Source: Samistivirus egole (Duplodnaviria; Heunggongvirae; Uroviricota; Caudoviricetes). Taken from it: a stretch of DNA of 60,107 nucleotides. How positions within the stretch are numbered: position 1 is the stretch's first letter; the number at the start of each line of letters is the position of its first letter. The notes below the pieces were generated by a model that was not told the DNA's origin, searched no databases, and saw only the letters and a list, made by a program, of their open reading frames with translations. Positions 1-55,858 of this stretch are shown piece after piece. The DNA lies in the IMG/VR virus record IMGVR_UViG_2974779775_000001, positions 1-60,107 of that record; one strand, 5' to 3'. Both the position numbers and the translations under genes were made by a program.

Positions 1-211
1 GTGGGGTATGTTCCGGGCGGGAACAAAAGGCATCTACCCTGCATATTAAGGCTAGCAGACACATGGGCCCACGAATCCAAGGCAAGTAGGGCTGTCAAGC
101 ACCGATAATTAGGCCCCAAAAGTGTCCCAAAGTGAGCAGAAACACGCTGATTTCAAGGGAAATGCTGCCATTTTGCCCGAAATCATGCCAAAAATCCCCA
201 ATTTTAACAGT

Positions 212-675
212 CATTCGTAAAGCAGCCCCAATCTAGCCCACATGCAGCCCCGAATCAGCCCATCTTCCTGGAAAATTAGGCAGTCATCGTAAATGGACCC
301 ACCATTCGAAGGCCAATGAGTCTGACAGACCTTAGATTCATAGATGAGGTGTCGATTCTCCCTATATACATGCCAGACTTGAGTCTGATGTGAGAAAAGC
401 CCGGCAATTTGAAGAAGCTTTCGTAAACGAACTAGATAGATACACACGCATTATAGGGAAGGGTAGGTAGTATATGTATATAGGGGACAAGGGTACTCAT
501 CACTACCGGCCTTGAATCTCAGCATGTCTTGTCTCTCATGTATATAGCAGAAAAGCCACCCCGAAGGGTGGCTATTTTTGTAAACTCAAATCCTTGCGAA
601 ATTGTGGAATCTTCCGGGATTCTGAGGCCCATTCGTAAAGGGAATCTCTGGGAAATTTGAGGCCCCATCGTAAAG
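212..675 (+). repeat. Five copies of TCGTAAA (mostly CA(T)TCGTAAAG) in the non-coding left end
   Basis: TCGTAAA at 215, 287, 421, 633 and 668. The last two sit in ~20-bp direct repeats GAGGCCC(A/C)(T/A)TCGTAAAGGG. Confidence 0.75.
554..573 (-). terminator. Intrinsic terminator, UUCG loop
   Basis: On the minus strand AGCCACCC-TTCG-GGGTGGCT followed by TTTCT; a T-run also follows on the plus strand. Confidence 0.7.
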
Positions 676-889
676 GGGAAAAAGTCGGACATAGGGGACA
701 AATGACTGATGATGTTCATAGTCATGATGTTAGTTAGACTAGCTAAGGTGTCCGGGTCCGACATTGAAAGGTCCCTGGGAGGCGGCCGACCTTCCGCTCA
801 TTACCCCTCGCCGAATGACTGATAGGGGTCCCAGGGACACACTTTGTACTACTCTTCTATGTTAGCAAGAGCGTGAGCCTATGTCAACA

Positions 890-1123
890 TCACTTGGTGT
901 AGTCAGGGAACAGGCGTTCCAACTCCCAGTCTTCCAAGAGATAGGCAGAGTGAGTGGGGGAGGGTACAGAGATACTGACAGCCCTGCCAAACTTCTTTGC
1001 CTGTTCGTTCCAGACCTTACCGATGAAAGAGTTGGGAGTGATTCCCTCCACCTTGAAGTAGAAGCTTCCCGAGAGAACCAGGTCACCCATGGACAGTTCG
1101 ATGCTTTCCTTTACCGGCTTCAT
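890..1123 (-). CDS. Hypothetical protein (start 1123 leaderless, or 1090)
   Basis: ORF with its own promoter; ATG at 1123 lies 6 nt from the -10. Confidence 0.7.
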   Translation of the reverse strand: MKPVKESIELSMGDLVLSGSFYFKVEGITPNSFIGKVWNEQAKKFGRAVSISVPSPTHSAYLLEDWELERLFPDYTK

Positions 1124-1129
1124 GTGTTG

Positions 1130-1158
1130 AGTCTACCAGTACAAGAGGGCTCTGTCTA
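1130..1158 (-). promoter_or_regulatory. Early sigma70/HrdB-type promoter
   Basis: TAGACA-N17-TAGACT. Confidence 0.8.
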
Positions 1159-1202
1159 CCCACCGGCCAATTTGTCGGACCCCGACCCCGAAGGGCCGAG
1201 CA

Positions 1203-1502
1203 TCAGAAGTCGGGTTCGTCCATCAGGCTGCTGAACTCCTCTTCCATTTCAGCAATGGCCTCAGCCATCCAGAGGGCTCGTTCCTTCCTGCGAATTTCAC
1301 GACGGTGCCAGCGTCCGTTGTCCAGCTCATCCATGTAGCGGTGGGCAAGGATACGGCTGTTACCCATGACTCCACTGTTACGAGTCACGTGACCACTCCA
1401 CCTCTTACGGTGAAGCCCGGAACGGGGAATCGGGATACCCTTGGCACTGTTAGCGTACTCCGTGGCGCGAACCACACTGTACCAGTCACCGACAGAACGC
1501 AT
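1203..1502 (-). CDS. Hypothetical protein
   Basis: 99-aa ORF, GGGAGG RBS, own promoter, stop followed by hairpin. Confidence 0.8.
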   Translation of the reverse strand: MRSVGDWYSVVRATEYANSAKGIPIPRSGLHRKRWSGHVTRNSGVMGNSRILAHRYMDELDNGRWHRREIRRKERALWMAEAIAEMEEEFSSLMDEPDF

Positions 1503-1528
1503 ATACTTCCTCCCTTTTGCTTAGCTTG

Positions 1529-1557
1529 AGTCTACCAGAGTACAAGGACACTGTCTA
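1529..1557 (-). promoter_or_regulatory. Early promoter
   Basis: TAGACA-N17-TAGACT. Confidence 0.8.
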
Positions 1558-1634
1558 GCTACCGGGCGTTTGTCCGGCCCCGCCAAAAATCCCCTAAACC
1601 CTTTCGGGCTAGGGGACTGGCGAACATTCCTGGA

Positions 1635-2648
1635 TTAGCTGGCCAGGGCCAGGACCGCCTTACGGATGCGGTTCTTCTCGACGTTGACGACCGGGTCAAA
1701 GCCACTTGCGGCGATGAACAGGTTATCGACGTTGCCACCACGCGGCATCCGGTACCAGTCGATACGCTCCGTCAGAGCGTTCAGAGCACCCGCCATCGTG
1801 CCAGACAGAGACTGCGTGGTCTTGGGACCGTCACCCGTGTCGGTGAAGATGCCCATGAGGATGTCACGCTTCGACTCCCACTTGACCATGCTGCCCTTGA
1901 CATCCTTTTCGGGCTTGGGGTACAGGTCCTGAATCAGAGCATCGAACTTGTCCTTCGTGCACTGCACCTCGAACAGAGAGTTCATCTCACGCTCGAACTC
2001 ATCCGCGTAGGCGAACGTGATGTTCAGAGCCTCACGCGCAGCAGCCATGCGACCCTCGATGGTCTGCGTGTGGCGCATCTTGAACTGTTGCTTCACACCG
2101 TTACGGAGTGCAAAGTTCAGCGTGTTCTGACACACGACACGAACCGGGGTAATGCTTGCCTGAACTGCGACAGACCCGTCATGCGACGTGTTGACCAGAA
2201 GATACAGCTTGGTCACGTCATCGTCACCGACCTTGATGTCACGCCCGATGCTCAGCGAACCGAACACCACACGACCATCCTTGATAGAACCGGCAGTCTC
2301 CCAGGTTCCACCACCCGCAAGGATGCCGTCACCGAAGCCGAACAGCTCTTCGTTCTGGACGACCTTGTACCGCTCGCCCACCGTGGCCAGAACGTCATTC
2401 CGGCCGGTGAAGGGGTTGGTACGGACGACCATGTGAGGCTCCGTCACGAAGTCATAGGTGTCGGACACCAGACCCATGATTTCCTTGATGGACTCCAGAC
2501 GCACATCCCAGCCCGAAAGGTGGGCGAGAGACAGCATCTCCGAAGTGGTCAGCTCCCCCTCGAATACGGTTCCGAGGTTGTGCCACGCGGGCTCACTGCG
2601 AGTGGCGAACGCGACCTGACCCTTGGAACCAATCTCAAGACCGTGCAT
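1635..2648 (-). CDS. DUF932 family (phage/plasmid TIGR03299-like) protein
   Basis: AWHNLG...Y.VVQN.E.F...WETAGSIKDGRVVF...NTSHDGS...TPVRVVCQNTL motifs. AGGAGG RBS supports the start at 2648. Confidence 0.85.
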   Translation of the reverse strand: MHGLEIGSKGQVAFATRSEPAWHNLGTVFEGELTTSEMLSLAHLSGWDVRLESIKEIMGLVSDTYDFVTEPHMVVRTNPFTGRNDVLATVGERYKVVQNEELFGFGDGILAGGGTWETAGSIKDGRVVFGSLSIGRDIKVGDDDVTKLYLLVNTSHDGSVAVQASITPVRVVCQNTLNFALRNGVKQQFKMRHTQTIEGRMAAAREALNITFAYADEFEREMNSLFEVQCTKDKFDALIQDLYPKPEKDVKGSMVKWESKRDILMGIFTDTGDGPKTTQSLSGTMAGALNALTERIDWYRMPRGGNVDNLFIAASGFDPVVNVEKNRIRKAVLALAS

Positions 2649-2706
2649 GTTGTGCCTCCTAGGCAGATTGGTGTTAGGGCCGGTTTCCCTGCCCTTCGAT
2701 GTCTCT

Positions 2707-2736
2707 AGTCTAGCAGTAGGCAAGGGGTGATGTCTA
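2707..2736 (-). promoter_or_regulatory. Early promoter
   Basis: TAGACA-N18-TAGACT-N6-ATCGAAGGG. Confidence 0.8.
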
Positions 2737-2840
2737 CCCATGCTGCCGGGCTCATGTCCACAATGTCCGATTTGCCCGTTGCCGGACCCGGACACACGAA
2801 GGCCCCTCCGAAGAGGGGCTGTGTGCGAGCCTTAGCAGAC

Positions 2841-3281
2841 TCAGTACGCGGCGTCCAGGCAGGAACGCTCCCAGTTGGCCAGGTACATGCCGTCCAGCTT
2901 GGACACATAGGCGTCCACGATGTCCTTCGAGTCCTTGAGACCCAGACCGGTCTTCTCACGGAGCTGCTTGATGCACTGAATCTTCTTGTTGGAACCGACC
3001 TCACGGACGATGTCCTTGACCAGCTCCGCACCCTGCGCCTTGACGCGCGCCTCGATGTCACGGAGACGGTTCAGCTCGTGGCTGGTGGGCTGCTCGGCGT
3101 CCTGCTTACCGGAACGGTAGCCAGCCTGGTAGCCCTCGGCGTAGGACTTGTCCTCACGGTTCTGGAGTTCCCCGGCGTAGATGGCCTCGAACATGTTGAC
3201 CAGCTCCATGGCCTTGTTGAGGCTCATGTGACCCTCGAAGTTGTGGAGGGAGGCGAGGAGCTGAGCGCGAAGGTCCGACAT
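2841..3281 (-). CDS. Protein with C-terminal ribosomal L7/L12 (bL12) CTD-like domain
   Basis: KKIQCIKQLREKTGLGLKDSKDIVD resembles the bL12 CTD KI.VIK.VR..TGLGLKEAK.LVE. Confidence 0.75.
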   Translation of the reverse strand: MSDLRAQLLASLHNFEGHMSLNKAMELVNMFEAIYAGELQNREDKSYAEGYQAGYRSGKQDAEQPTSHELNRLRDIEARVKAQGAELVKDIVREVGSNKKIQCIKQLREKTGLGLKDSKDIVDAYVSKLDGMYLANWERSCLDAAY

Positions 3282-3326
3282 GATGTTCTCCGTTTCTAGG
3301 GGCTCCTTGCCCCTTTCGATGTCTCT

Positions 3327-3356
3327 ATCTTAGCAGTACCAAGGGCCCTGTGTCTA
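3327..3356 (-). promoter_or_regulatory. Early promoter
   Basis: TAGACA-N18-TAAGAT-N6-ATCGAAAGGG. Confidence 0.8.
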
Positions 3357-3403
3357 CCGGTCGTTTTTGTCCGGGCCCGACAGGGCCCCGAAGGGCCCTT
3401 CTG

Positions 3404-3844
3404 TCAGAACCTCACACCGACACCGGAACCGTCCAGCGATTCCACGATGCTCTTTGCGGTACGCAGGTCCAGCGTCGGGAAGTGGGCGCGAAGGTGCTTG
3501 ATGCACGCAATCTTGCGCTCCAGGTTGTAGTAGCTGAATTCACTGTTCGCCCAGATGGACGCACGCGCGACCAACTTGGTGTGGTCGTTCTCAGCGGCAT
3601 AGGTGGTCAGACGCTCCCCGTGCGCCTTACCCTGTCCGTAGCCGTCGTTGAAGGCGGACTCCACACGCCCGTTCGCCTCCTTACGGGCCAGGTCCCAGGC
3701 GTTGTTCTCCACCTCGTTGACCCGCTCCAGGTGGGCACCGTAGATGAGGTTGGCCACCGTGAACGCCTTCTTCAAGCTCATCTTGACACCGTTGGCGTTG
3801 AAGATACGCATGATGCGGGCCTCGTCCAGGGTGAAGATGCTCAT
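3404..3844 (-). CDS. Paralog of 2841-3281; divergent bL12 CTD-like domain
   Basis: Same length (146 aa). Shares MSL.KA, EG/DGY..GK and RKIACIKHLRAHFPTLDLRTAKSIVESLDG. Confidence 0.7.
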   Translation of the reverse strand: MSIFTLDEARIMRIFNANGVKMSLKKAFTVANLIYGAHLERVNEVENNAWDLARKEANGRVESAFNDGYGQGKAHGERLTTYAAENDHTKLVARASIWANSEFSYYNLERKIACIKHLRAHFPTLDLRTAKSIVESLDGSGVGVRF

Positions 3845-3889
3845 GGTAGCCTCCAGTCTCAGGGAGCTTGTCTCCCTTTCGATGTCTTT

Positions 3890-3918
3890 AGTCTACAGGA
3901 CTAGTGAGGCAGATACAA
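3890..3918 (-). promoter_or_regulatory. Early promoter
   Basis: TTGTAT-N17-TAGACT-N6-ATCGAAAGGG. Confidence 0.75.
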
Positions 3919-3976
3919 CCCCTCTTCAAAGTGTCCGGGCCCGACACGGGCCCCGAAAGTCAAGGGCCCGGTAGGG

Positions 3977-4312
3977 TCAAGGGTTGGTGTGTCCCCTTTT
4001 CAGTAGTATCTGTTCGATGATGAATTTCGAATCCATCACGCGATTGAATTCATCATCTGAGCGGCTTTCCGTCCTGCCTGCCCATGCATTGAGAATGGAG
4101 ATGATGAACTGAAACATCACCGCCTGCACAGGCTCAGGATAGGTCGAAAGCAGATAGGCGAATGCATGAGGGTCGAATGACCGCTTATCCATTTCGTCAA
4201 TCAGCTTATTGGCCAGACGCTCATACGACGTAGGCCGTGGCGTTACGAGTCGCGCACCCTCATACATGTCAGGTGCGATGATGCTTGTTCGTTTGAAGGG
4301 ACTACGCGCCAC
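3977..4312 (-). CDS. Hypothetical protein (start GTG 4312 or ATG 4267)
   Basis: C-terminal part of the 225-aa ORF. The upstream part of that ORF overlaps two other genes. Confidence 0.65.
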   Translation of the reverse strand: MARSPFKRTSIIAPDMYEGARLVTPRPTSYERLANKLIDEMDKRSFDPHAFAYLLSTYPEPVQAVMFQFIISILNAWAGRTESRSDDEFNRVMDSKFIIEQILLKRGHTNP

Positions 4313-4466
4313 CCTCTCCCCCAAAGTCTTCCGTTGTACCGTATCCGTCTGAGACGCTGACAGACAGGCCCAGCACCTTTGCCATGAACTCTGCCGTAGC
4401 AGTAGCAAAGGGCCAGGCCGTGTCGTGAGCGTCATCATCGGGCGTGTCGATTTCGATGATGACCAT
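4302..4466 (-). CDS. Small acidic hypothetical protein (54 aa, MVIIEIDTPDDDAHD...)
   Basis: Translated by hand; AGGA RBS; fills the gap between the Lsr2-like gene and the next gene. Confidence 0.65.
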   Translation of the reverse strand: MVIIEIDTPDDDAHDTAWPFATATAEFMAKVLGLSVSVSDGYGTTEDFGGEGGA

Positions 4467-4475
4467 GACTCTATC

Positions 4476-4994
4476 CTATCGTGCGTGAACCTCGACGTCC
4501 ATACCGAGCACCACCGGGGAGCCACAGCCGCAGTGCGACAGGCTGTAACCGCACTTGCACACCTCACGCTCCGAGAGACGGATGCGCTTGCCACGGTAGT
4601 AAGCCGTGTACTCGGTACGGTTCGAACGGGTGGGCTCGGCGTGCGGACGGACATCCTTACCGGTCACCTTGACGTGCACACCGGGCGCAGCGGGCTTGAC
4701 CTCCGGGTTGTCTGCCTTGTAAGCGGCCAGCACCTCAGCCGACAGACGACCACGGGACGACACGGTGAGACCCTTGGAAGCGGCCCACGCACGCACCACC
4801 TTGGCATCGAACTGCCCGGCCTTGGGAGCGGCCTTGACGACCTTGCGAGGCGTGGCGTCGGTGTCAGCGAAGACCTTACCCGACTTCTCAGCCTCAGCGA
4901 TGGCCTCGTATGCGGCAGCGCTCATCCGGCCACGGGATTCCTTGGCCAGGCCCAGAGAGACAGCGTACGCGCGACGGGTCATGTTGACGTTCAT
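4476..4994 (-). CDS. Lsr2-like DNA-binding protein with two RGR AT-hook-type modules
   Basis: VRAWAASKGLTVSSRGRLSAEVLAAY matches the Lsr2 C-terminal domain. The N-terminal RRAYAVSLGLAKESRGRMSAAAYEA is a second, similar module. Confidence 0.8.
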   Translation of the reverse strand: MNVNMTRRAYAVSLGLAKESRGRMSAAAYEAIAEAEKSGKVFADTDATPRKVVKAAPKAGQFDAKVVRAWAASKGLTVSSRGRLSAEVLAAYKADNPEVKPAAPGVHVKVTGKDVRPHAEPTRSNRTEYTAYYRGKRIRLSEREVCKCGYSLSHCGCGSPVVLGMDVEVHAR

Positions 4995-5021
4995 GGGGTT
5001 TCCTTCCCTCGGTGTGCACTC

Positions 5022-5050
5022 AGTCTATCGGATTGAAGGCGGAGAGGCAA
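5022..5050 (-). promoter_or_regulatory. Early promoter
   Basis: TTGCCT-N17-TAGACT. Confidence 0.7.
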
Positions 5051-5091
5051 GCCCCGGTGCAGAGGTTGGTTTCCCTCCCCTTCATGTCTCT

Positions 5092-5121
5092 AGTATAGAG
5101 GACGTAACAGGGTCCTGTCTA
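5092..5121 (-). promoter_or_regulatory. Early promoter in tandem with 5022-5050 (no full gene between)
   Basis: TAGACA-N18-TATACT-N6-ATGAAGGGGAGGGAAACC. Confidence 0.75.
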
Positions 5122-5183
5122 CAGTCCTAAATGTCCGATTTGCCCGAAGTCCGGGCCCGACATGCCCCCGAAGGGGCAAGGGG

Positions 5184-5918
5184 CTAAGCCTTTCGGCGCT
5201 TAGAGACCTTGGACGCGAAACGGATATCTGCCTTACCGAAGATGCAAAGGCCACACGTTACGCACGCGCCACCCTTTTCGGTAATGAGAGGAATGCGCTT
5301 GGCATTCTCAGGGCAGATAGCCCCAGGCTTACCAGTTTCGGTAAGCATGAATTCCTTACCCTGTTCGTGAGTCTCAGAGAGATAGGCAAGGCGGACCGAA
5401 GGGAATTCCTTCTTTGTCGCCAGCGCCTTTTCCTCATTCTCACTGTCCACACTCAGATAAACAGAGAGGTTTTCGTGCCCTACGATGTGACGCACGTACT
5501 GGAATGACCTAGTGTAAATCCAGAATTGCACATCCTGGAAAACCTCAGCCATTCGAGCGATATTCTGTGCGTATTCCGCAGAGAAGATATCGCCGTCAGC
5601 GTGCCAGCGAAACAGCTTAGGCGCGTCACGCTTTTCACAGTCAGCCCTGAAACTCTCAATCATTACTGCGAGATTGAGAAACTGGTCCTCGTTAGGGTCA
5701 TTGAGAATGGCCCAGTTGTTGAGAACCAATTCACGATATGCAGGATACTGCCTTTCGAGCTTACCTGCATAGCATACGGTCTCACAGACCTTTGTCGCGC
5801 CGGGGCAGGAAAACGCCTTTCCACTCGGAATGGAGAATGCGTTTTTGATGACCGACTGTTCCCCTCGCTTGTTGGCAAGGTTGGCAGTCTTACGGTCATT
5901 CGTGCGCTTAAGCGGCAT
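5184..5918 (-). CDS. GP88-like / radical-SAM-like Fe-S protein
   Basis: SCPGATKVCETVCYA Cys cluster, FRWHADGD, WIYTRS and C-terminal C..C..C. GGAGG RBS at the 5918 start. Confidence 0.65.
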   Translation of the reverse strand: MPLKRTNDRKTANLANKRGEQSVIKNAFSIPSGKAFSCPGATKVCETVCYAGKLERQYPAYRELVLNNWAILNDPNEDQFLNLAVMIESFRADCEKRDAPKLFRWHADGDIFSAEYAQNIARMAEVFQDVQFWIYTRSFQYVRHIVGHENLSVYLSVDSENEEKALATKKEFPSVRLAYLSETHEQGKEFMLTETGKPGAICPENAKRIPLITEKGGACVTCGLCIFGKADIRFASKVSKRRKA

Positions 5919-6213
5919 TGCGTTCCTCCGAGCTGTAGGGCAATTCAGTGTTACGGACAATGGTACCGAGCGAAACAGCGTTGATTGTCTTGTGTCCAAG
6001 AATCCACGCCATTACGACACGGTGCTGACCATTGTAGACCGTGCCATTCTGAAAGTTGATAGGCATCTGAATTCCGTCACGCTCGCATGACTCAATGAAT
6101 TCATCGCTCATCTCAAAGAAAAGCTGAGTGAAAAGGTCCATCGTGGACTGACCTTCCTCGCGGTCTGCGAAGTCGGCACGGGCAACGATGGCTTCAACGC
6201 TCAGCTTCCTCAT
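5908..6213 (-). CDS. ParB/Sulfiredoxin-like domain protein (leaderless start)
   Basis: F.ESC..DGI..PI....VYNGQHRV motif; TATACT -10 lies 7 nt upstream of the ATG. Confidence 0.65.
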   Translation of the reverse strand: MRKLSVEAIVARADFADREEGQSTMDLFTQLFFEMSDEFIESCERDGIQMPINFQNGTVYNGQHRVVMAWILGHKTINAVSLGTIVRNTELPYSSEERNAA

Positions 6214-6220
6214 GTGTTCG

Positions 6221-6249
6221 AGTATAGCAAGACATGCGGACGTAAACAA
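6221..6249 (-). promoter_or_regulatory. Early promoter, leaderless transcript
   Basis: TTGTTT-N17-TATACT. Confidence 0.6.
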
Positions 6250-6378
6250 GCCCCTAGACGAATGTCTGAAATGTCCGTTGTCCGCCCCGGACATGACTGA
6301 GGGCCCCCGAAGGGGCCCGGTGTCAGAGAAAGATGATTGCGAGAAAGAACACAATCACCACGTACCAGAGAAAGGCGG

Positions 6379-6456
6379 TCAGACATTCTCGCAAACCTCC
6401 CGGTACCAAGAGTAGTGCGTGTACAGGTAGAAGTGAAGCCACTCAACGAAGTGCAT
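6379..6456 (-). CDS. 25-aa aromatic-rich peptide MHFVEWLHFYLYTHYSWYREVCENV
   Basis: AGGAG RBS 5 nt upstream; starts 2 nt after the stop of 6459-6782. Confidence 0.5.
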   Translation of the reverse strand: MHFVEWLHFYLYTHYSWYREVCENV

Positions 6457-6458
6457 GT

Positions 6459-6782
6459 TTACTCCTGACAGAGAGGCAGGCCCAAGTCGTCCTGCATGTC
6501 CAGAAAGTCCGAGTTGAAGATTTCAAGGTACGTGCCACCCTTGATTTCTTCGATACCGAGCATGTATGCCACGATGAGCCTGTGACATCCCTCGTGAATC
6601 ATGTTCTGCTCCTCATCATAGCAGATGGGAGAGACGATTCCAAGGGTCTGGCATGAGTCCATGAACTCATCCGACAGCTCAGACAGCTTGCGCAAGAGAA
6701 GTTGTTCACGAGTGAGACCAAGAGCCTCGGCGTCGTAGAACAGAGCGTTGTCGATGAGTGCCTTCACACTGTACATCTTCAT
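6459..6782 (-). CDS. ParB/Sulfiredoxin-like domain protein, paralog of 5908-6213
   Basis: SDEFMDSCQTLGIVSPI...IHEGCHRLIVAYMLG. Confidence 0.65.
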   Translation of the reverse strand: MKMYSVKALIDNALFYDAEALGLTREQLLLRKLSELSDEFMDSCQTLGIVSPICYDEEQNMIHEGCHRLIVAYMLGIEEIKGGTYLEIFNSDFLDMQDDLGLPLCQE

Positions 6783-6805
6783 TGCTTTCCCCTTTCGCTA
6801 GTACG

Positions 6806-6835
6806 AGTCTACTGCACTACCGGGCCCCATGTCAA
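6806..6835 (-). promoter_or_regulatory. Early promoter
   Basis: TTGACA-N18-TAGACT. Confidence 0.85.
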
Positions 6836-6908
6836 CACATCTGAAAAATGTCCGGGGCCGCCAAAAGGGGCCCCGAAGGGCCCCCAAGGGGTCAAGCCGT
6901 TGTTGTGA

Positions 6909-7181
6909 TTAGTCCTCGCTGGTGTCCTTCTGGCTCACCAGCTTCGCACGACCGAGCAGAGAGGCGTCAGCCTCCTTCCACTTACGGACCGGGCGACCGG
7001 TGCGCACGCGGGGGAAGCGGGCCAGGATGGCACGGGCGCGGGTCTCGTCGGCCTCCAGGATGTCGAACCGCTGGAAGGGAGCGACGTTGGACGTGGCACC
7101 GAACTCGATGTCCACCCCCTGGACAATCATGGCCACACGGAGGGCGAGAGCGTCACGGGCGGGAACGATACCGGCAATCAT
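6909..7181 (-). CDS. Hypothetical protein
   Basis: 90-aa ORF, GGAG RBS, GC3-rich codons, followed by a hairpin and a palindrome. Confidence 0.75.
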   Translation of the reverse strand: MIAGIVPARDALALRVAMIVQGVDIEFGATSNVAPFQRFDILEADETRARAILARFPRVRTGRPVRKWKEADASLLGRAKLVSQKDTSED

Positions 7182-7294
7182 GTGAACTCCACTGCTAGAA
7201 GTAAGCTGGGGTATGAAGTTGTCAGAGACTTTGGCAGGAAGGGAAAAACCTCACGTTGCGAGGCCCTGTGGCCTGTCCCCTTGTGCTTAGCTAG

Positions 7295-7324
7295 AGTCTA
7301 GCAGGCTGACCTACTCGCAGTCAA
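7295..7324 (-). promoter_or_regulatory. Early promoter (-35 inside the 3' end of the upstream gene)
   Basis: TTGACT-N18-TAGACT. Confidence 0.75.
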
Positions 7325-7493
7325 CCAGGTACTCGGGCTCGTCGTCCTCGGAGACGGTCCAGATGTCCGCCAGCCATCCGCTACGGATGACGCCAGCCGA
7401 CACGAACTTGTGCGGCTCAGCAGCCTCACGGACAGCGTCCGCGTGCTCCTCTTCGGAGATGATGCTGTAGCCCTCGGGAATCTCGAACGTCAT
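7311..7493 (-). CDS. Small acidic hypothetical protein
   Basis: 60 aa, GAGGAG RBS, own promoter. Confidence 0.8.
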   Translation of the reverse strand: MTFEIPEGYSIISEEEHADAVREAAEPHKFVSAGVIRSGWLADIWTVSEDDEPEYLVDCE

Positions 7494-7538
7494 GATTGCT
7501 CCTCTCTTGGGGAGGTTTCCCTCCCTTTCGATGTTCTA

Positions 7539-7567
7539 AGTCTACATGAGAGATGGGGCGGACGCAA
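7539..7567 (-). promoter_or_regulatory. Early promoter
   Basis: TTGCGT-N17-TAGACT-N6-ATCGAAAGGG. Confidence 0.75.
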
Positions 7568-7626
7568 CACCCAATATTCGTTAGGCTGCCTAAGTTGTCC
7601 GGGTCCGACCCCGAAGGGCCAGACTG

Positions 7627-7785
7627 TTAATCTCCCATGTCATCCAAGTGAGCATCGGGAGCGGGCTCGAACTCAAGGAAGGTGTCTTCGAAAAGCACCA
7701 TCCATGCGTAGCCCTCACGGTTGTCAGGATTGCACTTACCACGGTGCATGTCACCCGTGGCAGCACCACACTCAATGCAGGTCAC
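7627..7785 (-). CDS. Small Cys/His protein (52 aa, MTCIECGAATGDMHRGKC...)
   Basis: GTG start overlaps the upstream TGA; AAGGAGG RBS; not in the supplied ORF track. Confidence 0.7.
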   Translation of the reverse strand: MTCIECGAATGDMHRGKCNPDNREGYAWMVLFEDTFLEFEPAPDAHLDDMGD

Positions 7786-8000
7786 TCGGCCTCCTTGATG
7801 TCCATGGCAACCAGCATGTCAACCCTGCTGACAGTGAGGGCAATCTCTCGCCCGTCCTTGTCAGTGAAGTTGAAGGTACTTGCCTTGGCAGCGACCGCCT
7901 TGCGCCACGACTCGTTCGTCTCCTCCGCACTGTGCGAAGTCAGAGTGAACAGAACCGGCTTGTCACGGTGGGCCAGGTGAACAGCAACGCGAGTAGCCAT
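7782..8000 (-). CDS. Hypothetical protein
   Basis: 72 aa, GAGAGGA RBS, own promoter. Confidence 0.8.
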   Translation of the reverse strand: MATRVAVHLAHRDKPVLFTLTSHSAEETNESWRKAVAAKASTFNFTDKDGREIALTVSRVDMLVAMDIKEAE

Positions 8001-8045
8001 GATGCATCCTCTCTTCCGGGAGTTTTTCTCCCTTTCGATGCTCTA

Positions 8046-8074
8046 ACTCTACACCATCAGACAGACAGAATCAA
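8046..8074 (-). promoter_or_regulatory. Early promoter
   Basis: TTGATT-N17-TAGAGT-N6-ATCGAAAGGG. Confidence 0.75.
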
Positions 8075-8121
8075 GACTGTCGGGCCCCGACACGGGCCCC
8101 GAAGGGCCCGGCGGGAAGGTG

Positions 8122-8406
8122 TTACTTCTTGGCCTTGGCGCGCTTGTTGCTGTGGTTGCCGTTCATGAGGGCCGTGAAGTCCAGCATGATGTTCTGCTTG
8201 AAGTTGGTCGCTCCGTGGAACTTGCCGTCCTGGTCACGGATGACGATGCGGACCTCGGTGGAGTCGCTGCCCGGAGTGGTCTTCCAGGTCTCCAGACGGA
8301 TGCTGTAGGTGCTCTTGGAGCCCTTGACCTTGAAGCCCTCGGAGATGGTGACGCTGGAGACGATGTTGTGGTTGACGTCGGTCGCCTTGCGAAGGGTAAC
8401 AGCCAC
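8122..8406 (-). CDS. Basic hypothetical protein
   Basis: 94 aa, GTG start with AGGAG RBS. Confidence 0.8.
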   Translation of the reverse strand: MAVTLRKATDVNHNIVSSVTISEGFKVKGSKSTYSIRLETWKTTPGSDSTEVRIVIRDQDGKFHGATNFKQNIMLDFTALMNGNHSNKRAKAKK

Positions 8407-8458
8407 GGTGACTCCTAAGTCTCTGCTAGGGGTTTCTTTCCCCCTTGCTGATAGCTAA

Positions 8459-8487
8459 AGTCTACACGACTCAGCCGACAAGTACAA
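8459..8487 (-). promoter_or_regulatory. Early promoter
   Basis: TTGTAC-N17-TAGACT. Confidence 0.75.
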
Positions 8488-8548
8488 CCCATGAAATTAT
8501 GTCCGAAATGTCTGTCGGAGCCGGACAGGGGCCCGAAGGCCCCTCCCG

Positions 8549-8875
8549 TCAGTCTGCCAGGATGGCGGCCAGACGCTCACGCTGCGCACGGTCATGCGCA
8601 CCGGAACGGCTCGCGTACTCCTGGAACTCGGAGACGGTTTCGACGGAGAAGTGTCCGTTTTCGTCCAGCTTGGCCACACGAACGGTGTAGCGTCGGGCGT
8701 AGTCGTCGTTCCGCTCCGAAGAGACGAAGAACATGGACTGTCCGTCGATGGTGCTGTAGCACATGTCCGAAATGCGCGACTTCCACCACCGCATGGTAGA
8801 AGCGGAGAAGAAGTGGTTGCCCTGGTCCTTGGCGATGGCCTTGGCGTCCTCGATGCTGAACAGAACCTTACGCAT
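8549..8875 (-). CDS. Hypothetical phage protein (GNHFFS..TMRWW.SR family)
   Basis: 108 aa from MRKVLF; GAGGA RBS; own promoter. Confidence 0.8.
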   Translation of the reverse strand: MRKVLFSIEDAKAIAKDQGNHFFSASTMRWWKSRISDMCYSTIDGQSMFFVSSERNDDYARRYTVRVAKLDENGHFSVETVSEFQEYASRSGAHDRAQRERLAAILAD

Positions 8876-8904
8876 TTGGGGTTCCTCTCCCTCGGTGTAA
8901 GACG

Positions 8905-8933
8905 AGTCTATCAGAGACAAGGGACATGCACAA
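8905..8933 (-). promoter_or_regulatory. Early promoter
   Basis: TTGTGC-N17-TAGACT. Confidence 0.7.
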
Positions 8934-8990
8934 CACCTACCGGGCCTTTTTGAAAATGTCCGACCCCGACAGGGCCCGAAGGCCCCTCTG

Positions 8991-9305
8991 TCAGGATTCG
9001 ATGGACTTCTGACGCTCACGCGGGAGCGCAGCCACCTCCGTGATGATTTCGGTCAGACGCTCCTCATCGACCCACCCCTCAACGGAGTCATCCAACACGC
9101 CATTGTCGTCAGGCATGTTGCCCTCGGGGTCGAAGATTCCGCATTCGACTCCGTAGGTTCCGTACGCCTTGACGACCGACAGACGCCATCCGTTCTCGTA
9201 GTTGACGTAGAAGTGGATGCCCGTTCCGTTCTCACCGTGACGCGGACCGAAAGTGACCTTTGCACCCGGAGCAACGTCACGCGCGATGTTGGCAAGCTCA
9301 CTCAT
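8991..9305 (-). CDS. Hypothetical phage protein
   Basis: 104 aa from MSELAN; own promoter, followed by a hairpin. Confidence 0.8.
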   Translation of the reverse strand: MSELANIARDVAPGAKVTFGPRHGENGTGIHFYVNYENGWRLSVVKAYGTYGVECGIFDPEGNMPDDNGVLDDSVEGWVDEERLTEIITEVAALPRERQKSIES

Positions 9306-9336
9306 GGTCTTTCCCTTCGTCGTTTTCGTTAGCACT

Positions 9337-9365
9337 AGTCTAGCAGTCGGATTTTTGAGTCGCAA
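9337..9365 (-). promoter_or_regulatory. Early promoter
   Basis: TTGCGA-N17-TAGACT. Confidence 0.7.
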
Positions 9366-9446
9366 CCCCTCAGACCGATTTTTTAGTCTGTGGGCAAAAT
9401 GTCTGTTTTTTTAGTCGGGGGCGGACGCCCCGAAGGGCTAGCCGCC

Positions 9447-9758
9447 TTACTCCCAGGGCCGGTAGTCAGACCAGTCGGAACCCTCGTGATTCTGAATTTC
9501 GACGGTCACCGTGTCACCCAAACGGTGATTCACGCTGTACAGGGAACGGCTGGAGCCCTGGTAACGCCTCTGGGCCTTTGCCCACTTGACCAGCTTCTCA
9601 GCCTGCTTACGGGAACGGCAGGGCCATGCCTCGATGCACTCTCCGTAGTTGTACCACCATCCGCCCTCTTCCGAGCCACCACAGGCCCGGTCCACCAGAT
9701 GAATGTTCACCCAGTGCTTGTTCCGACGACGCTGACCCATACGCAGACCCTTGGCCAT
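9447..9758 (-). CDS. Hypothetical phage protein (R.CGG.EEGGWWY motif)
   Basis: 103 aa, AAGGAGG RBS. Confidence 0.8.
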   Translation of the reverse strand: MAKGLRMGQRRRNKHWVNIHLVDRACGGSEEGGWWYNYGECIEAWPCRSRKQAEKLVKWAKAQRRYQGSSRSLYSVNHRLGDTVTVEIQNHEGSDWSDYRPWE

Positions 9759-9782
9759 TTCCGCCTCCTTGTTGATGACCTA

Positions 9783-9811
9783 AGTCTAACAGAAGCCTAG
9801 GACAGATTCAA
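9783..9811 (-). promoter_or_regulatory. Early promoter
   Basis: TTGAAT-N17-TAGACT. Confidence 0.75.
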
Positions 9812-9866
9812 TATGCTTGCCAGGATGTACAGTGATTGTCGGACCCGGACAAAAAAATTCGCCTAC

Positions 9867-9927
9867 AAATTCACCCCTCTTTTCTAAGGGAATCTGGGAA
9901 GAAATCCTTGAAAAGAGGGGTGAATTT
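9867..9927. repeat. Perfect 18-bp inverted repeat with a 25-nt spacer in an AT-rich non-coding tract
   Basis: AAATTCACCCCTCTTTTC (9867-9884) / GAAAAGAGGGGTGAATTT (9910-9927). Confidence 0.85.
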
Positions 9928-10181
9928 TTTCTGCGAATGTTTTTCGAAGGTCAGATTGCGACTTTTTCGTCTTTTCCTGCCTCACAAAGGCAGTATTTCG
10001 AATGTGTCGCCTCGATTGCGACAAAGCCGCTTTCCTGATACCTCGAAAGAAGGTTGGCCAGAAGGGACGAGTTGAAAACCGGTGTTTTGGATTTCAGCCC
10101 GTCCCTTTCCAGCAAAAGGGACATACTGTGGAATCGAACCTGAGAAACAGCCTTTTTCCGCATTATGCCCCCCCCTACTGC

Positions 10182-10328
10182 CTAGGCCAGTTCGGACATG
10201 TGCGGGTAGGCGTCCCAGTCGAAGCCGTCCACACGGTCACCATCCTGCACATCGGACACAGGCACCGTGATGGTGGTGAAGACACCAGCGTCGCTGGCCT
10301 GCTCAAGAAGGGTACGGAGGTCAGTCAT
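10182..10328 (-). CDS. Small acidic hypothetical protein (48 aa, MTDLRTLLEQASDAG...)
   Basis: Translated by hand; purine-rich RBS and own promoter; not in the ORF track. Confidence 0.7.
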   Translation of the reverse strand: MTDLRTLLEQASDAGVFTTITVPVSDVQDGDRVDGFDWDAYPHMSELA

Positions 10329-10359
10329 GTTCTTCCTTCTTCCTCTTGGTGATAGCTCT

Positions 10360-10388
10360 AGTCTAGTCTACGTACATGGGGGATGCAA
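10360..10388 (-). promoter_or_regulatory. Early promoter
   Basis: TTGCAT-N17-TAGACT. Confidence 0.7.
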
Positions 10389-10448
10389 GCCCTAGATGTT
10401 CCGGGAATTTTCAGCGCCTATCGTACACGCGCGGGGGAAATGTGGGGT

Positions 10449-10575
10449 ATGTACTTAATGTACCTTAATAGGGCCTATGTACCATATGTCCGATATGTAC
10501 CATGCGTACCTGTATGTACCCATATAGCAGGATATATCCCCTATCCTCCCTATGTACCGAATGTCCGATATGCCC
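10449..10575 (+). repeat. Phased hexamer array ATGTAC/ATGTCC with ~9-10 bp periodicity
   Basis: Hexamers at 10449, 10458, 10477, 10486, 10495, (10504), 10514, 10552, 10561 and 10570. Confidence 0.75.
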
Positions 10576-10691
10576 GTTTGTCGGGGACGGACTGTTACAC
10601 ATCCGTTATCTAAGAAACCCTGTTTTGGTGGTTTGGCGGGCCCTGACTAGGGCATGATGTAGGCATAGCCACTACGGACCAGGGAGACACA

Positions 10692-11153
10692 GTGAACGCC
10701 ACCACCGCCACCCACACCAACACCCACACTGACGGCCGGACCTGCACCTACAGCACGGAAAAGGCCACAAACGCCCGTGTGCGTAGGCAGGTGCTCGCTA
10801 CGGTCCTGTACCTGGCTAGCCTTACGGGAGACAGTGACGGGGCCACATGGGCTAACTGTGTGGGGTGTGGGGAGCGTGCCCACGTGGGTGGTACGCCTAG
10901 GGCCATGGACACGTTCAACCTTGGCCACGTGCACAGTGATGCTGAGGGTGGCATGTGGTGCGTGTGCAACTTCCTTCCCCTGTGCAGGCAGTGCAACGTA
11001 GACATGGGCAAGGAACACATGATGGACCTTCTCACCCCGATGTATGACAATCGGGACATGTGGGACGGTAAGCTCCTCAAGGACACCGGGGCTGAGGTTG
11101 CACCCATGGACAACCGAGGACGTGCCCGCTGGAACGCCCCCACGGGCCGCTAA
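10692..11153 (+). CDS. HNH-family endonuclease-like protein
   Basis: CVGC...LGHV...NFLPLCRQCN zinc/HNH pattern; GGGAG RBS before the GTG. Confidence 0.7.
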   Translation: MNATTATHTNTHTDGRTCTYSTEKATNARVRRQVLATVLYLASLTGDSDGATWANCVGCGERAHVGGTPRAMDTFNLGHVHSDAEGGMWCVCNFLPLCRQCNVDMGKEHMMDLLTPMYDNRDMWDGKLLKDTGAEVAPMDNRGRARWNAPTGR

Positions 11154-11167
11154 GCGGCTTTGAGAGT

Positions 11168-11196
11168 AGCCCCTAGGACGTAGTGGCCTAGGGGCT
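11168..11196. terminator. Hairpin at the convergence of the early HNH gene and the leftward operon
   Basis: AGCCCCTAGG-N9-CCTAGGGGCT then CTTTC. Confidence 0.65.
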
Positions 11197-11391
11197 CTTT
11201 CATGCCCTCAGACGGGCCCTCAGCCCTTTTGAAAACGGCTTTCAACTAGGGTGGAACCTTCCCCGGAACCTTCCCGCAAGAGAATGTCAAGGGATATGGG
11301 CGCACTATCTGGATTGTTACAAAGGTATGCGAAGCATGTATCGTACAACATCAAAAATTACTAACATTTCGCACACCTTTTAATGTAACAA

Positions 11392-11628
11392 TTAGGTAAC
11401 GTCGGGGTCGGACTCTTCCTCATCCATTACGAATGATGGGGGAGGAGAGAACGTCTTTCCCGCAGAATGGGCGTCGAATACGGCTTTCGCTTCGTCAGGA
11501 TTTACAGCACGAGCAATGCACATCATTACGTCGTAGATACGAAACAACATGATTGTCTGTACTATCTCTGATGCATCCTCTGCGAATACATCTTGAGGCT
11601 CGTTGTCACTGTTCATCTTGTCTGTCAT
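11392..11628 (-). CDS. Hypothetical protein
   Basis: Acidic ORF overlapping the thyX stop; start 11628 or 11616. Confidence 0.7.
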   Translation of the reverse strand: MTDKMNSDNEPQDVFAEDASEIVQTIMLFRIYDVMMCIARAVNPDEAKAVFDAHSAGKTFSPPPSFVMDEEESDPDVT

Positions 11629-12391
11629 TCCCAAATGGTTTGAGAGCGACAGGGAATTCAGGAACAATGAGGTCACGAACGGCCTGCGCATACTGCTGAA
11701 TTTCGTACTGTGCCTTGTGCTCTAGTCTTTCATTGAGAAAATGCATTACTGCTGCAAGGCTGGTAGTCCAACGCCATCTTACATACATACCATATGCGGG
11801 GAGGAATAGTCTTGCTTGTTCCGGCGCGATTCCTGCTCGCATAGCAGTCTCGTATAGTTCCTGGCCTTCTTCGATGTAATCGGCCAGAGCACCTGTCCAA
11901 TAGTCACCGTATTCAGGCTGACATCCGACAACCTTCTGATTTGGCGTTTCTGCTGGAAGAGGCTCACCACTTCCTTGCTTGCTATTAGCGGGCTTTGAAC
12001 GCCATTCGTTCTCTGCTGGCATGTGGAATGTAGGGTCTTCTGTTACATACCTTCTTGATGATTCATTCCAGCCTATCTGGTCATCAAGGGCTGTACTGGC
12101 AACAGTGTACTTCCACCACTGCCGGGCCACAAATAGTGGCGCATATACTTCAAATGTCAGTGCAACATGACGAAAAGGAGAGTATTCCTTGTTTCTGACT
12201 AGGAAATTAATCAGTCTTTCATCCTTGTCAGAGAACTCGGCACTCTCCTTCGCGTAACTTACTCGTGCTGCATTGACGATTGAAAGGTCTGTACCCATGT
12301 GGTCTACGAGTCTTACGTATCCCTGGTCCAGTACATCAATCTTCGTCAACGTCCATCCATCCTTGTTCTTCAAAAGCGGTAACCCAGTCAC
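11606..12391 (-). CDS. thyX: FAD-dependent thymidylate synthase ThyX
   Basis: YVRLVDHMG.DLSIVNAARVSY, PF.H..LTFEVYAPLFVARQW, NESSRRY, PEQARLFLP, HFLNERL...AQYEI motifs. Confidence 0.92.
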   Translation of the reverse strand: MTGLPLLKNKDGWTLTKIDVLDQGYVRLVDHMGTDLSIVNAARVSYAKESAEFSDKDERLINFLVRNKEYSPFRHVALTFEVYAPLFVARQWWKYTVASTALDDQIGWNESSRRYVTEDPTFHMPAENEWRSKPANSKQGSGEPLPAETPNQKVVGCQPEYGDYWTGALADYIEEGQELYETAMRAGIAPEQARLFLPAYGMYVRWRWTTSLAAVMHFLNERLEHKAQYEIQQYAQAVRDLIVPEFPVALKPFGNDRQDEQ

Positions 12392-14976: not shown

Positions 14977-15378
14977 TTATTTTCCTGACTCACTGAACAT
15001 CCAGAGCCACTTATCGATACCTCGCTTAACCTCAATGAGGACATCCTGTGTTGCAAGGTCATCGGTAATGTTCAGTATACCATTCTGTAGAACGTGGGTC
15101 AATCCTCTTAGAGAACTCACCATGTTATCCACAACCTGCTGGTAACTTACTGATTCACCGGACATTTCGTATGCAACCTTTGGAGCAAGATACCAACCGT
15201 TTGCTCGTGCACGTTCAGCGATAGCGTCAGCATATTCGGTTATATCGGAGTGAAGCTCATCCAGCTTCTCATGTAGGTAAAAGAACTCCTTACCCCTGAG
15301 ATTCCAATGACTCTCCTTGACGACCAAGGAGAGAATCAAAAGCCATTCGAGAGCTTCCTCCATCTTTGCTTCTAGCAC
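14977..15378 (-). CDS. dps: Dps/ferritin-like protein
   Basis: HWNLRG.EF..LHEKLDE......D.IAER and D..TQD......DKWLWM ferroxidase pattern. Confidence 0.8.
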   Translation of the reverse strand: MLEAKMEEALEWLLILSLVVKESHWNLRGKEFFYLHEKLDELHSDITEYADAIAERARANGWYLAPKVAYEMSGESVSYQQVVDNMVSSLRGLTHVLQNGILNITDDLATQDVLIEVKRGIDKWLWMFSESGK

Positions 15379-55327: not shown

Positions 55328-55858
55328 TTGTTTGGAGACCATGTGGGAAAAGAGAAAAGAACCGGTAAGAGAAATGCCGCTCGTTACTTCTTTCTCGATG
55401 GCGTTCCTCACAAGAAACTACAAATCAATCGTGGGGCAGACACTTTGCTCGCATGGAATTATATTGAACGCAAGCGCGTTGCGTACGTATGGTCTGTAGC
55501 AAAGAGAAACATGAAGCCTGCATTCCTGAGCAGAGACGTTATGAGAATGCTCAATCGTCACAGGAACAGTATTCATCTCTACATTCATGAACAGCAAATC
55601 AGAACTCCTTTCAAAACATATTCTCTCGATGGAGAATATAGGCCCGGTATGTTTCTGTGGTCAGAGAAGGATATTCTTGACCTTCATGAACTGCTTGTCA
55701 ATAGAGGATATGGACGTAAGCGCAAAGATGGACTACCCACTGCGTCACGACTTCCTTCTAGAGCAGAGCTACTTGCCATGATGCGGAACGATGTGGTTCT
55801 ATACACGAAGACCCGTGATGGTGAATTCACACCAGTGTGGCAAGAGAAAGATTGGTGA
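55328..55858 (+). CDS. Putative HTH DNA-binding protein
   Basis: Basic protein; SRDVMRMLNRHRNSI..YI resembles a MerR/excisionase-like HTH. The start may be the GTG at 55343. Confidence 0.55.
   Translation: MFGDHVGKEKRTGKRNAARYFFLDGVPHKKLQINRGADTLLAWNYIERKRVAYVWSVAKRNMKPAFLSRDVMRMLNRHRNSIHLYIHEQQIRTPFKTYSLDGEYRPGMFLWSEKDILDLHELLVNRGYGRKRKDGLPTASRLPSRAELLAMMRNDVVLYTKTRDGEFTPVWQEKDW

Follow-up and report, generated by a model that had tools for sequence, protein, structure and literature searches.

What is the function of a 15-bp, loosely palindromic sequence that recurs at the unit boundaries of a phage terminal repeat, and which protein, if any, reads it? The question is raised by a stretch of 60,107 nucleotides from Samistivirus egole, referred to here as the window, that forms the left end of a 135,653-bp cluster BE1 Streptomyces phage genome (genus Samistivirus, siphovirus), the closest relative of which is Watermoore (95% identity). 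The sequence in question, TGTCSG-N3-CSGACA, which we call the box, is present in 16 copies between positions 749 and 10593, 8 of them exact, 7 with one mismatch and one, at 9413, with two. In the literature that we searched no description of these boxes was found, and the report of long terminal repeats in BE1 phages, where they are likened to those of T5 and SPO1, does not mention the motif (PMC5764925). The comparisons presented below make it highly probable that the box is recognized by a lineage-specific phage protein, and they point to a small HNH endonuclease encoded beside the boxes as the best candidate.

Exact matches to the box number 8 in the 60-kb window against 0.00 expected from 100 shuffles; if up to two mismatches are allowed there are 22 against 6.1 expected, and 19 of the 22 fall within 749-11414, leaving three in the other 48 kb, which is the chance level. 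The genome is bounded by an exact, 11,341-bp direct terminal repeat (DTR), the left copy of which occupies positions 1-11341 at a G+C content of approximately 56%, versus 47-49% in the remainder of the window (per 2 kb, ∼52-60% versus 45-51%). Genome-wide, 15 copies with at most one mismatch are counted per repeat, all inside the two DTR copies, and the 113-kb unique part contains none at this threshold. An initial annotation of this DNA had described 16 intergenic copies restricted to an "early region"; all 16 were recovered and, as all lie in the DTR, the early region is therefore the terminal repeat itself.

Blocks of pre-early or host-takeover genes in long terminal repeats are known from T5 and SPO1 (as cited in Hughes 2018, PMC5764925). 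The likeness extends to a repeat of ∼10-13 kb that is packed with small genes, mostly of unknown function, which are likely expressed first. To our knowledge neither T5 nor SPO1 has a comparable per-unit palindrome or a co-varying nuclease.

The genes of the repeat run leftward (minus strand), with the HNH gene as the sole rightward exception, and the units are built to a common plan that reads, on the coding strand, stop codon, GC hairpin, box, a spacer of variable length, promoter, leader with ribosome binding site (RBS) and the next gene. The hairpin is typically GGGCCC-TTCG-GGGCCC without a U tract, and in ∼14 units the promoter is of the HrdB type, with a -35 element TAGACA or TTGNNN separated by 17-18 nt from a -10 element TAGACT. 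As the initial annotation had it, boxes nearly always abut a gene-end hairpin and lie upstream of the next -35: in 13 of 16 cases the hairpin ends no more than 7 nt upstream of the box or overlaps it, the boxes at 9837 and 10579 having no adjoining hairpin and that at 749 no clear one. The gaps from box to -35, when recomputed, are 3; 11, 13, 13, 13, 14; 23, 25, 25, 26, 28, 29; and 43, 47 nt, in exact agreement with the classes proposed before (3, 11-14, 23-29, 43-47). The suggestion of roughly helical phasing that had been attached to them survives only in part, since the signal at 10.5 bp (R = 0.48, Rayleigh p ∼0.04) is there but is marginal and unspecific, periods of 15-16 bp fitting better, and since several cassettes are paralogous, so that the gaps are non-independent data points. 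The gap classes look like the product of optional spacer modules, such as GGCCCGGTRG and ATGTCCGWTWTGCCC.

Comparison with related phages establishes that the slot is kept and that its content is not. Watermoore, Jay2Jay and Mildred21 have 14, 15 and 13 copies of the TGTCSG box per repeat (type A in what follows), located only in or beside the repeat, and no TGTCSG boxes were found in the BE2 phages and more distant relatives examined. In relatives the same slot holds a 6-N3-6 box with lineage-specific half-sites, of which there are seven types in all: TGTCSG, G/AGCCG, TGACCG, TGGCGC, GTGCGC, TTGCGG and possibly TTGCCG. Karimac, Wofford, Birchlyn, StarPlatinum, Yaboi and LukeCage carry G/AGCCG-CCC-CGGY (the BE2 type, or type B), Tomas TGACCG-GCC-CGGTCA, Coruscant TGGCGC-CNG-GCGCCA, one metagenomic relative GTGCGC-CNG-GCGCAC and another TTGCGG-N3-CCGCAA. 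The BE2-type box is likewise confined to the repeat in Karimac, Bmoc, Wofford and Birchlyn. Both half-sites change in step between lineages, which bears out the earlier suggestion that the box behaves as the site of a dimeric factor. That it is a non-random DNA element, present once per early unit, is likewise supported. One box occupies a special position, ∼100 bp upstream of the HNH gene or operon, and this slot is filled in every lineage examined, in most by the lineage's own type and in BE2 phages by a GACCG form; ahead of it, again in every lineage examined, stand a run of ATGTACC repeats and a conserved motif, ATGTCCG..TGCCC. Some groups have another fixed element that comes after the box: the palindrome TAGATG-N7-CATCTA in Coruscant-like phages (Coruscant 827-11213) and AAAAGATCTT in BE2 (Karimac intergenic regions) and Tomas, with no obvious equivalent in BE1.

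The most informative of these genomes is that of Bmoc. Its repeat genes are of the BE1 type, with 70-86% protein identity to those of the window, and its repeat contains 13 type B boxes, GGCCG-CCC-CGGCC, and zero of type A. Orthologous intergenic regions of the window and Bmoc can be aligned through hairpin, promoter and leader, the box alone being switched. Because BE1 genes are thus combined with BE2 boxes at orthologous sites, all of the Bmoc sites must have switched together.

To ask which phage protein might be involved, six relatives were assembled genome-wide, and alignment columns were counted as discordant if Bmoc and Karimac (type B) share a residue that sets them apart from the type A phages, namely the window, Jay2Jay and Mildred21. 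Discordant columns have a background level of 1.07%, tree-like columns one of 13%. With 9 discordant versus 5 tree-like columns (p = 1.7e-5) the HNH endonuclease gene, which lies at 10692-11153 on the plus strand, divergent from the array, and encodes 153 residues, has the highest ratio of discordant to tree-like columns in the genome among real genes of at least 90 amino acids. It had been absent from the list of candidate binders in the initial annotation.

Trees of 29 lineages (isolates, IMG/VR contigs and metagenome contigs) lead to the same gene. On the HNH tree the seven box types need the minimum of 6 changes and Bmoc falls within a type B clade with support of 99/97, whereas the trees of ThyX, DUF932 and Lsr2 place it inside the phages of type A. 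In approximately unbiased (AU) tests, for groups that were chosen after the trees had been seen, a placement of Bmoc with type A is rejected by the HNH data (p = 0.005), as is one with Mildred21 (p = 2e-5), and ThyX, DUF932 and Lsr2 each reject a single type B clade (p = 4e-4 or less). Box type fits the HNH tree and no other tree tested. A further lineage, L225, groups with the TTGCGG lineage by DUF932 (100/99), yet it has type A boxes and an HNH gene in the type A clade (85/63). Residues specific to type B surround the HNH core (W53Y, R62N, H64Y, M88T, C92A, L94M), while the zinc site CxxC..CxxC and H79, N93 and N102 are invariant in all homologs. The family, phrog_7426, is restricted to this phage group. 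Since the version of the box tracks the HNH gene, the box would most likely be an HNH docking site, and about half of the confidence that we place in a phage protein goes to HNH as that protein. In Jay2Jay the repeat boundary lies between the HNH-proximal box and the HNH start codon (10693-10813; repeat length 10,778 bp, PMC5764925), so that the HNH gene is outside the repeat there and inside it in the present phage.

The picture that we favor, with slightly less than even confidence in the whole of it, is that the box is the site of a phage dimer, with HNH as the best candidate, and that it serves the coordinate control or insulation of the early units. A phage-encoded, sequence-specific protein would bind the 15-bp box as a symmetric dimer, at one site per early unit, between the terminator hairpin of one leftward gene and the next HrdB-like promoter, and at one further site upstream of the promoter of the HNH gene itself. 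Binding would mark or insulate the unit boundaries and control ∼17 early promoters jointly, the most likely effect being that early promoters are shut off or that units are kept independent of one another; HNH may in addition nick or cut at the box. Control or insulation is preferred because each unit has one site and because the site invariably precedes a promoter, that of HNH included.

A number of observations weigh against this account. The distance between box and promoter is variable in BE1 (3-47 nt), which would be unusual for a classical activator or repressor; in Coruscant most boxes are ∼22 nt from the -35. The agreement between site type and enzyme phylogeny depends on one clear discordant lineage, Bmoc, and on the weaker L225, the AU groups were defined post hoc as noted above, and types C and D lack an equally clear residue code in HNH. 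The HNH gene adjoins the array, so that linkage to another determinant may be responsible. The HNH region of Bmoc has ∼74% DNA identity to both its BE1 and its BE2 relative, with no clean transfer and no tract of the kind expected from recent acquisition, an origin that we have therefore discarded. An AlphaFold model of HNH (mean predicted local distance difference test score, pLDDT, of 54.5) is too poor to judge whether the protein forms a dimer, and a search of PDB sequences returned nothing meaningful. Finally, the present evidence does not separate regulation from nicking.

The strongest competitor, which we regard as unlikely though by no means negligible, keeps HNH and changes the function: the boxes would be cleavage or nicking targets of the enzyme, and their purpose recombination. 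Breaks at the unit boundaries would stimulate the exchange of promoter-gene cassettes between co-infecting phages, and they could also favor recombination from repeat to repeat, by which concatemers are formed. The co-variation of HNH with box type and the invariance of its catalytic residues are equally at home here, the sites are confined to a terminal repeat that is recombinogenic, and paralogs do not occupy the same places of the array in BE1 and BE2. Relatives of 95% identity differ by gain, loss and replacement of cassettes, the boundaries of which lie inside the repeated units, and in cluster O mycobacteriophages indels have been ascribed to recombination between similar palindromes (PMC4351075). 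The layout also resembles that of an integron (intI, attI and an attC array), in that a nuclease gene is divergent from an array of cassettes that all point the same way, an imperfect palindrome comes after each cassette, and one more site lies beside the enzyme gene.

Where crossovers actually occur can be seen from the breakpoints. Comparing the window with five relatives of 95% identity we located nine, each of them either at the end of a gene or within the repeated unit. Two deletions, in Cursive and PacManQ, have their crossover in the -10/leader repeat and not in the box, and replacements end at a stop codon, at an RBS and, once, 5 bp from box 9413, the only one of the nine breakpoints at a box edge (≤5 bp). 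In this small sample the box itself is not a preferred crossover point, and the proposal that boxes are crossover sites that shuffle cassettes receives no support. Nor do the physical genome ends coincide with boxes, the repeat boundaries carrying none, so that a role of the box as genome end or packaging cut was rejected as well. Moreover, thirty targets for double-strand cleavage would put the phage genome itself in danger, a hazard avoided only if the enzyme is limited to nicking or is kept under tight control.

By these comparisons it is the repeated regulatory unit that provides homology for cassette flux, much as do the promoter-early stem-loops (PeSLs) of T4-type phages (Arbiol 2010, PMC2839356; Comeau 2014, PMC4122927). 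In both cases a composite of terminator and early promoter forms the junction between small variable genes, and repeated junctions give the homology for gain, loss and replacement of cassettes in close relatives; here a stem-loop with a sigma-70-type promoter is found between small open reading frames in ∼14 units and breakpoints fall inside the motif. PeSLs belong to the hyperplastic regions of T4-like myoviruses, and the units of this Streptomyces siphovirus are thus an analogue and not a homologue: the two differ in host, in phage family and in the type of promoter, the array here lies only within a long terminal repeat, and there is the extra 15-bp symmetric box that is lineage-specific, switches in concert and tracks a nuclease gene.

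Known enzymes offer partial parallels to a nicking HNH. Phage HNH nickases of the N.phiGamma family are site-specific and read short CSG-type sites, AC^CGR and AC^CSG, which we take as a lead and nothing further (Xu and Gupta 2012, PMC3592412). Like HNH here they are small, zinc-containing phage proteins with short C/G-rich sites, and the half-sites of the boxes have a CSG core in common. Unlike it, they are encoded beside terminase genes and act in packaging as monomeric nickases on sites of 3-5 bp, whereas the phrog_7426 protein is a predicted enzyme and its putative site is a 15-bp dyad. The resemblance to integrons is also limited, as the adjacent gene encodes an HNH protein and not the tyrosine recombinase IntI, the site has 15 bp versus 57-141 bp, and the cassettes, far from being promoterless, have their own promoter and terminator. 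We know of no excision or insertion chemistry among HNH enzymes. The most far-reaching version, in which HNH and the lineage-specific boxes constitute a nuclease-driven, integron-like system that nicks each unit boundary for the exchange of host-takeover cassettes, enzyme and site co-evolving as a private "compatibility code" for trading phages, is speculative and in our judgment has a low probability.

A different phage protein might read the box as a classical operator, be it an unnamed regulator or one of the candidates proposed in the initial annotation, acting as repressor or activator and leaving the HNH match to linkage or coincidence. Temperate actinophages provide precedents for repressors that bind repeated operators or stoperators, for example the L5 gp71 sites and the conserved inverted repeats (CIRs) of phiC31; for the BE phage Riptide a genome announcement gives a lytic life cycle. 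Symmetric, lineage-specific sites upstream of every promoter are what such a regulator would require, and a change of specificity may need only one or two residues that our scan would miss, several candidates having a single discordant column. The counts of discordant to tree-like columns are nevertheless low for all those that had been put forward: 1/40 for the Lsr2-like protein, the tree of which moreover rejects a single type B clade, 0/27 and 0/2 for the ParB-like pair, 1/35 for the DUF2637 protein and 0/39 for the reading frame at 55328. Pfam finds no helix-turn-helix domain in the proteins of the repeat. We give a binder other than HNH little credence.

Four further genes were considered and set aside. 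The product of 14977-15378, labeled "DNA binding protein", is ferritin/Dps-like and does not co-vary, and the DUF7447 protein (8549-8875), tried as a type A-specific binder, is missing by tblastn from many type A lineages. A Holliday-junction resolvase (genome 65340-65660; 5 versus 3 columns) and a polynucleotide kinase/phosphatase (genome 104993-105898; 13 versus 24 columns) are not significant after correction for gene number; in both, which lie beyond the window, the residues shared by Bmoc and BE2 are above the genome average.

Could the symmetry of the box be that of a nucleic acid structure, and no dedicated protein be involved? At the RNA level the box would then supply a tandem terminator with its second hairpin, or at the DNA level it would form a cruciform, and gene conversion among the repeated units would keep it uniform within each genome. 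Of 16 units, 13 do have a terminator hairpin abutting the box, the two arms differ between lineages in a "compensatory" manner, and perfect versions, which make up 8 of the 15 copies in Mildred21, could form a stem of 6 bp with a 3-nt loop. In the window only 2 of 16 copies are perfect, however, 13 of 16 having bases at positions 5 and 11 that do not pair, and as RNA the 15-mer folds with a mean energy of only -2.8 kcal/mol. Type A lineages conserve hybrid sites, such as TGGCSG...CGGACA, in which position 3/13 does not pair, so that the box by itself, mispaired or hybrid, does not make the stable stem-loop of an intrinsic terminator. Several units of Coruscant, Bmoc and BE2 phages have a left half-site that at the same time serves as the 3' arm of the real terminator, and two separate hairpins are therefore impossible in those units; the copies at 9837 and 10579 have no hairpin at all. 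Among type A lineages the stems of the adjacent hairpins vary via compensatory changes, while the box is nearly invariant, above all its promoter-side CGGACA, with variation at the center. Conversion of just 15 bp at 13 Bmoc sites without selection is implausible, and a search of positions 1-12000 with Rfam covariance models gave no match at E = 0.1 or better. A structural origin is thus very unlikely, and mispairing, conserved hybrids, shared arms and hairpin-free copies favor recognition of the box in duplex DNA by a symmetric protein.

Least probable of all, and close to dismissal, is a host Streptomyces transcription factor exploited by the phage, for although the exact matches in five Streptomyces genomes number 9-16 per genome, compared with 1-4 when the pattern is reversed as a control, these genomes were picked because each holds one such palindrome, which biases the counts upward, the matches are scattered and mostly in coding sequence with no regulon-like set of sites (in one complete genome, open frames rich in G+C at third positions hold ∼9 of the 16), the density is ∼1.7 per Mb in hosts versus ∼700 per Mb in the repeat, and BE1 and BE2 phages from the same hosts (S. 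griseus ATCC 10137 and S. lividans JI 1326) have different boxes. A host genome was also sought via the phage Lsr2 protein, and this search found no relatives.

The repeat closest in kind to the box is that of the cluster O mycobacteriophages, a 17-bp palindrome (TGTTCGGNNNCCGAACA) with more than 30 copies that was proposed to be a dimeric protein site of unknown function, a transcriptional role being judged unlikely by the authors (Cresawn 2015, PMC4351075). Both are private, many-copy inverted repeats of actinobacteriophages with a variable 3-bp center, a TGT...ACA frame and a CGG/CCG core. The cluster O sequence, TGTTCGG-N3-CCGAACA, is an invariant 7-3-7 repeat that is spread genome-wide, with a third of the copies inside genes; the box is 6-3-6, degenerate, strictly intergenic, present once per unit and found in the terminal repeat only. 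The box element belongs neither to the PeSLs nor to the cluster O repeat.

The individual copies differ in quality and setting. At the left end of the array the exact copy at 749-763 is the last one and adjoins a small non-coding cassette (∼765-887), and the next, at 1173-1187 (1 mismatch), overlaps the 3' arm of a terminator hairpin, 14 nt from the -35. The box at 1571-1585 (1 mismatch) is a hybrid, TGGCGG + CGGACA on the coding strand, a form kept in all aligned type A lineages except L225; that at 6849-6863 (1 mismatch) likewise has a hybrid left half, TGGCGG. Exact copies are found at 3368-3382, which abuts a hairpin and is 11 nt from the -35, at 3932-3946, the Bmoc ortholog of which has a type B box, at 8513-8527 and at 6279-6293 and 8078-8092, the two perfect palindromes, the latter 3 nt from its -35. 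Another, at 8957-8971, lies on the retained side of a cassette replacement relative to Watermoore, and beside the copy with two mismatches, at 9413-9427, homology with Watermoore restarts 5 bp from the box edge. The remaining copies are at 2780-2794 and 5148-5162 (1 mismatch each, both beside a companion motif described below), 7596-7610 (1 mismatch, overlapping a hairpin arm), 9837-9851 (exact, 25 nt from the -35) and 10579-10593 (1 mismatch), the last of these ∼100 bp upstream of the HNH start codon. A probable degenerate 17th box with two mismatches (11400-11414) is located 59 bp beyond the DTR, where the leftward ThyX operon has its 3' end, and its Jay2Jay counterpart is an exact box.

The companion motif, ATGTCCGWTWTGCCC, occurs in three copies (2763-2777, 5131-5145 and 10561-10575), all in the repeat and each directly adjoining a box. 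It is probably a separate conserved element because it is present before the HNH-proximal box in every lineage, irrespective of box type. Between the array and the HNH gene (10440-10578) it is joined by a run of ATGTACC/GGTACAT-type repeats (10440-10560) that accounts for 5 of the 10 ATGTACC copies in the genome, in a layout kept in all lineages examined, namely BE1, BE2, Tomas, Coruscant and metagenomic relatives. The run is a possible origin, packaging site or array of protein-binding sites. Near the left genome end, past the last box, there are two near-repeats, GGCCC(C)AT(T)CGTAAAGGG, at 600-700, and a similar pair is found in Karimac; these may be an end-recognition element.

Other features of the repeat concern the leaders and cassettes. 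The leaders of early promoters (e.g., 7495-7510) have a conserved ACATCGAAAGGGAG that is followed by a short hairpin (GGGAGGGAAACCTCCC) and the RBS, an arrangement common to BE1, Bmoc, Wofford, LukeCage and Coruscant. Tandem paralogs of 146 residues are encoded at 2841-3281 and 3404-3844 (minus strand), the first of which matches the C-terminal domain of ribosomal protein L7/L12 (Pfam E = 2.7e-8), and their BE2 homologs are at different array positions. An extra cassette at 1203-1502 (minus strand) is absent from the closest relatives, Watermoore and others; Jay2Jay, Karimac and Tomas have related genes (54-57% amino acid identity) in the corresponding place of the array.

In large lytic phages with long terminal repeats, the genes that are expressed first after infection lie in these repeats, and apart from T5 and SPO1 little is known of how such blocks are regulated and how they diversify. 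What the present comparison provides is a testable pair, a box at every unit boundary and a single nuclease whose phylogeny predicts box type, together with a natural "swap" control in the form of Bmoc, where type B boxes stand amid BE1-type repeat genes. If the pairing is true it would give a handle on early-gene control in ∼90 sequenced Streptomyces phages and a possible account of similar orphan palindromes, such as the cluster O repeat, and the orthogonal site/protein pairs would be of potential use in Streptomyces engineering.

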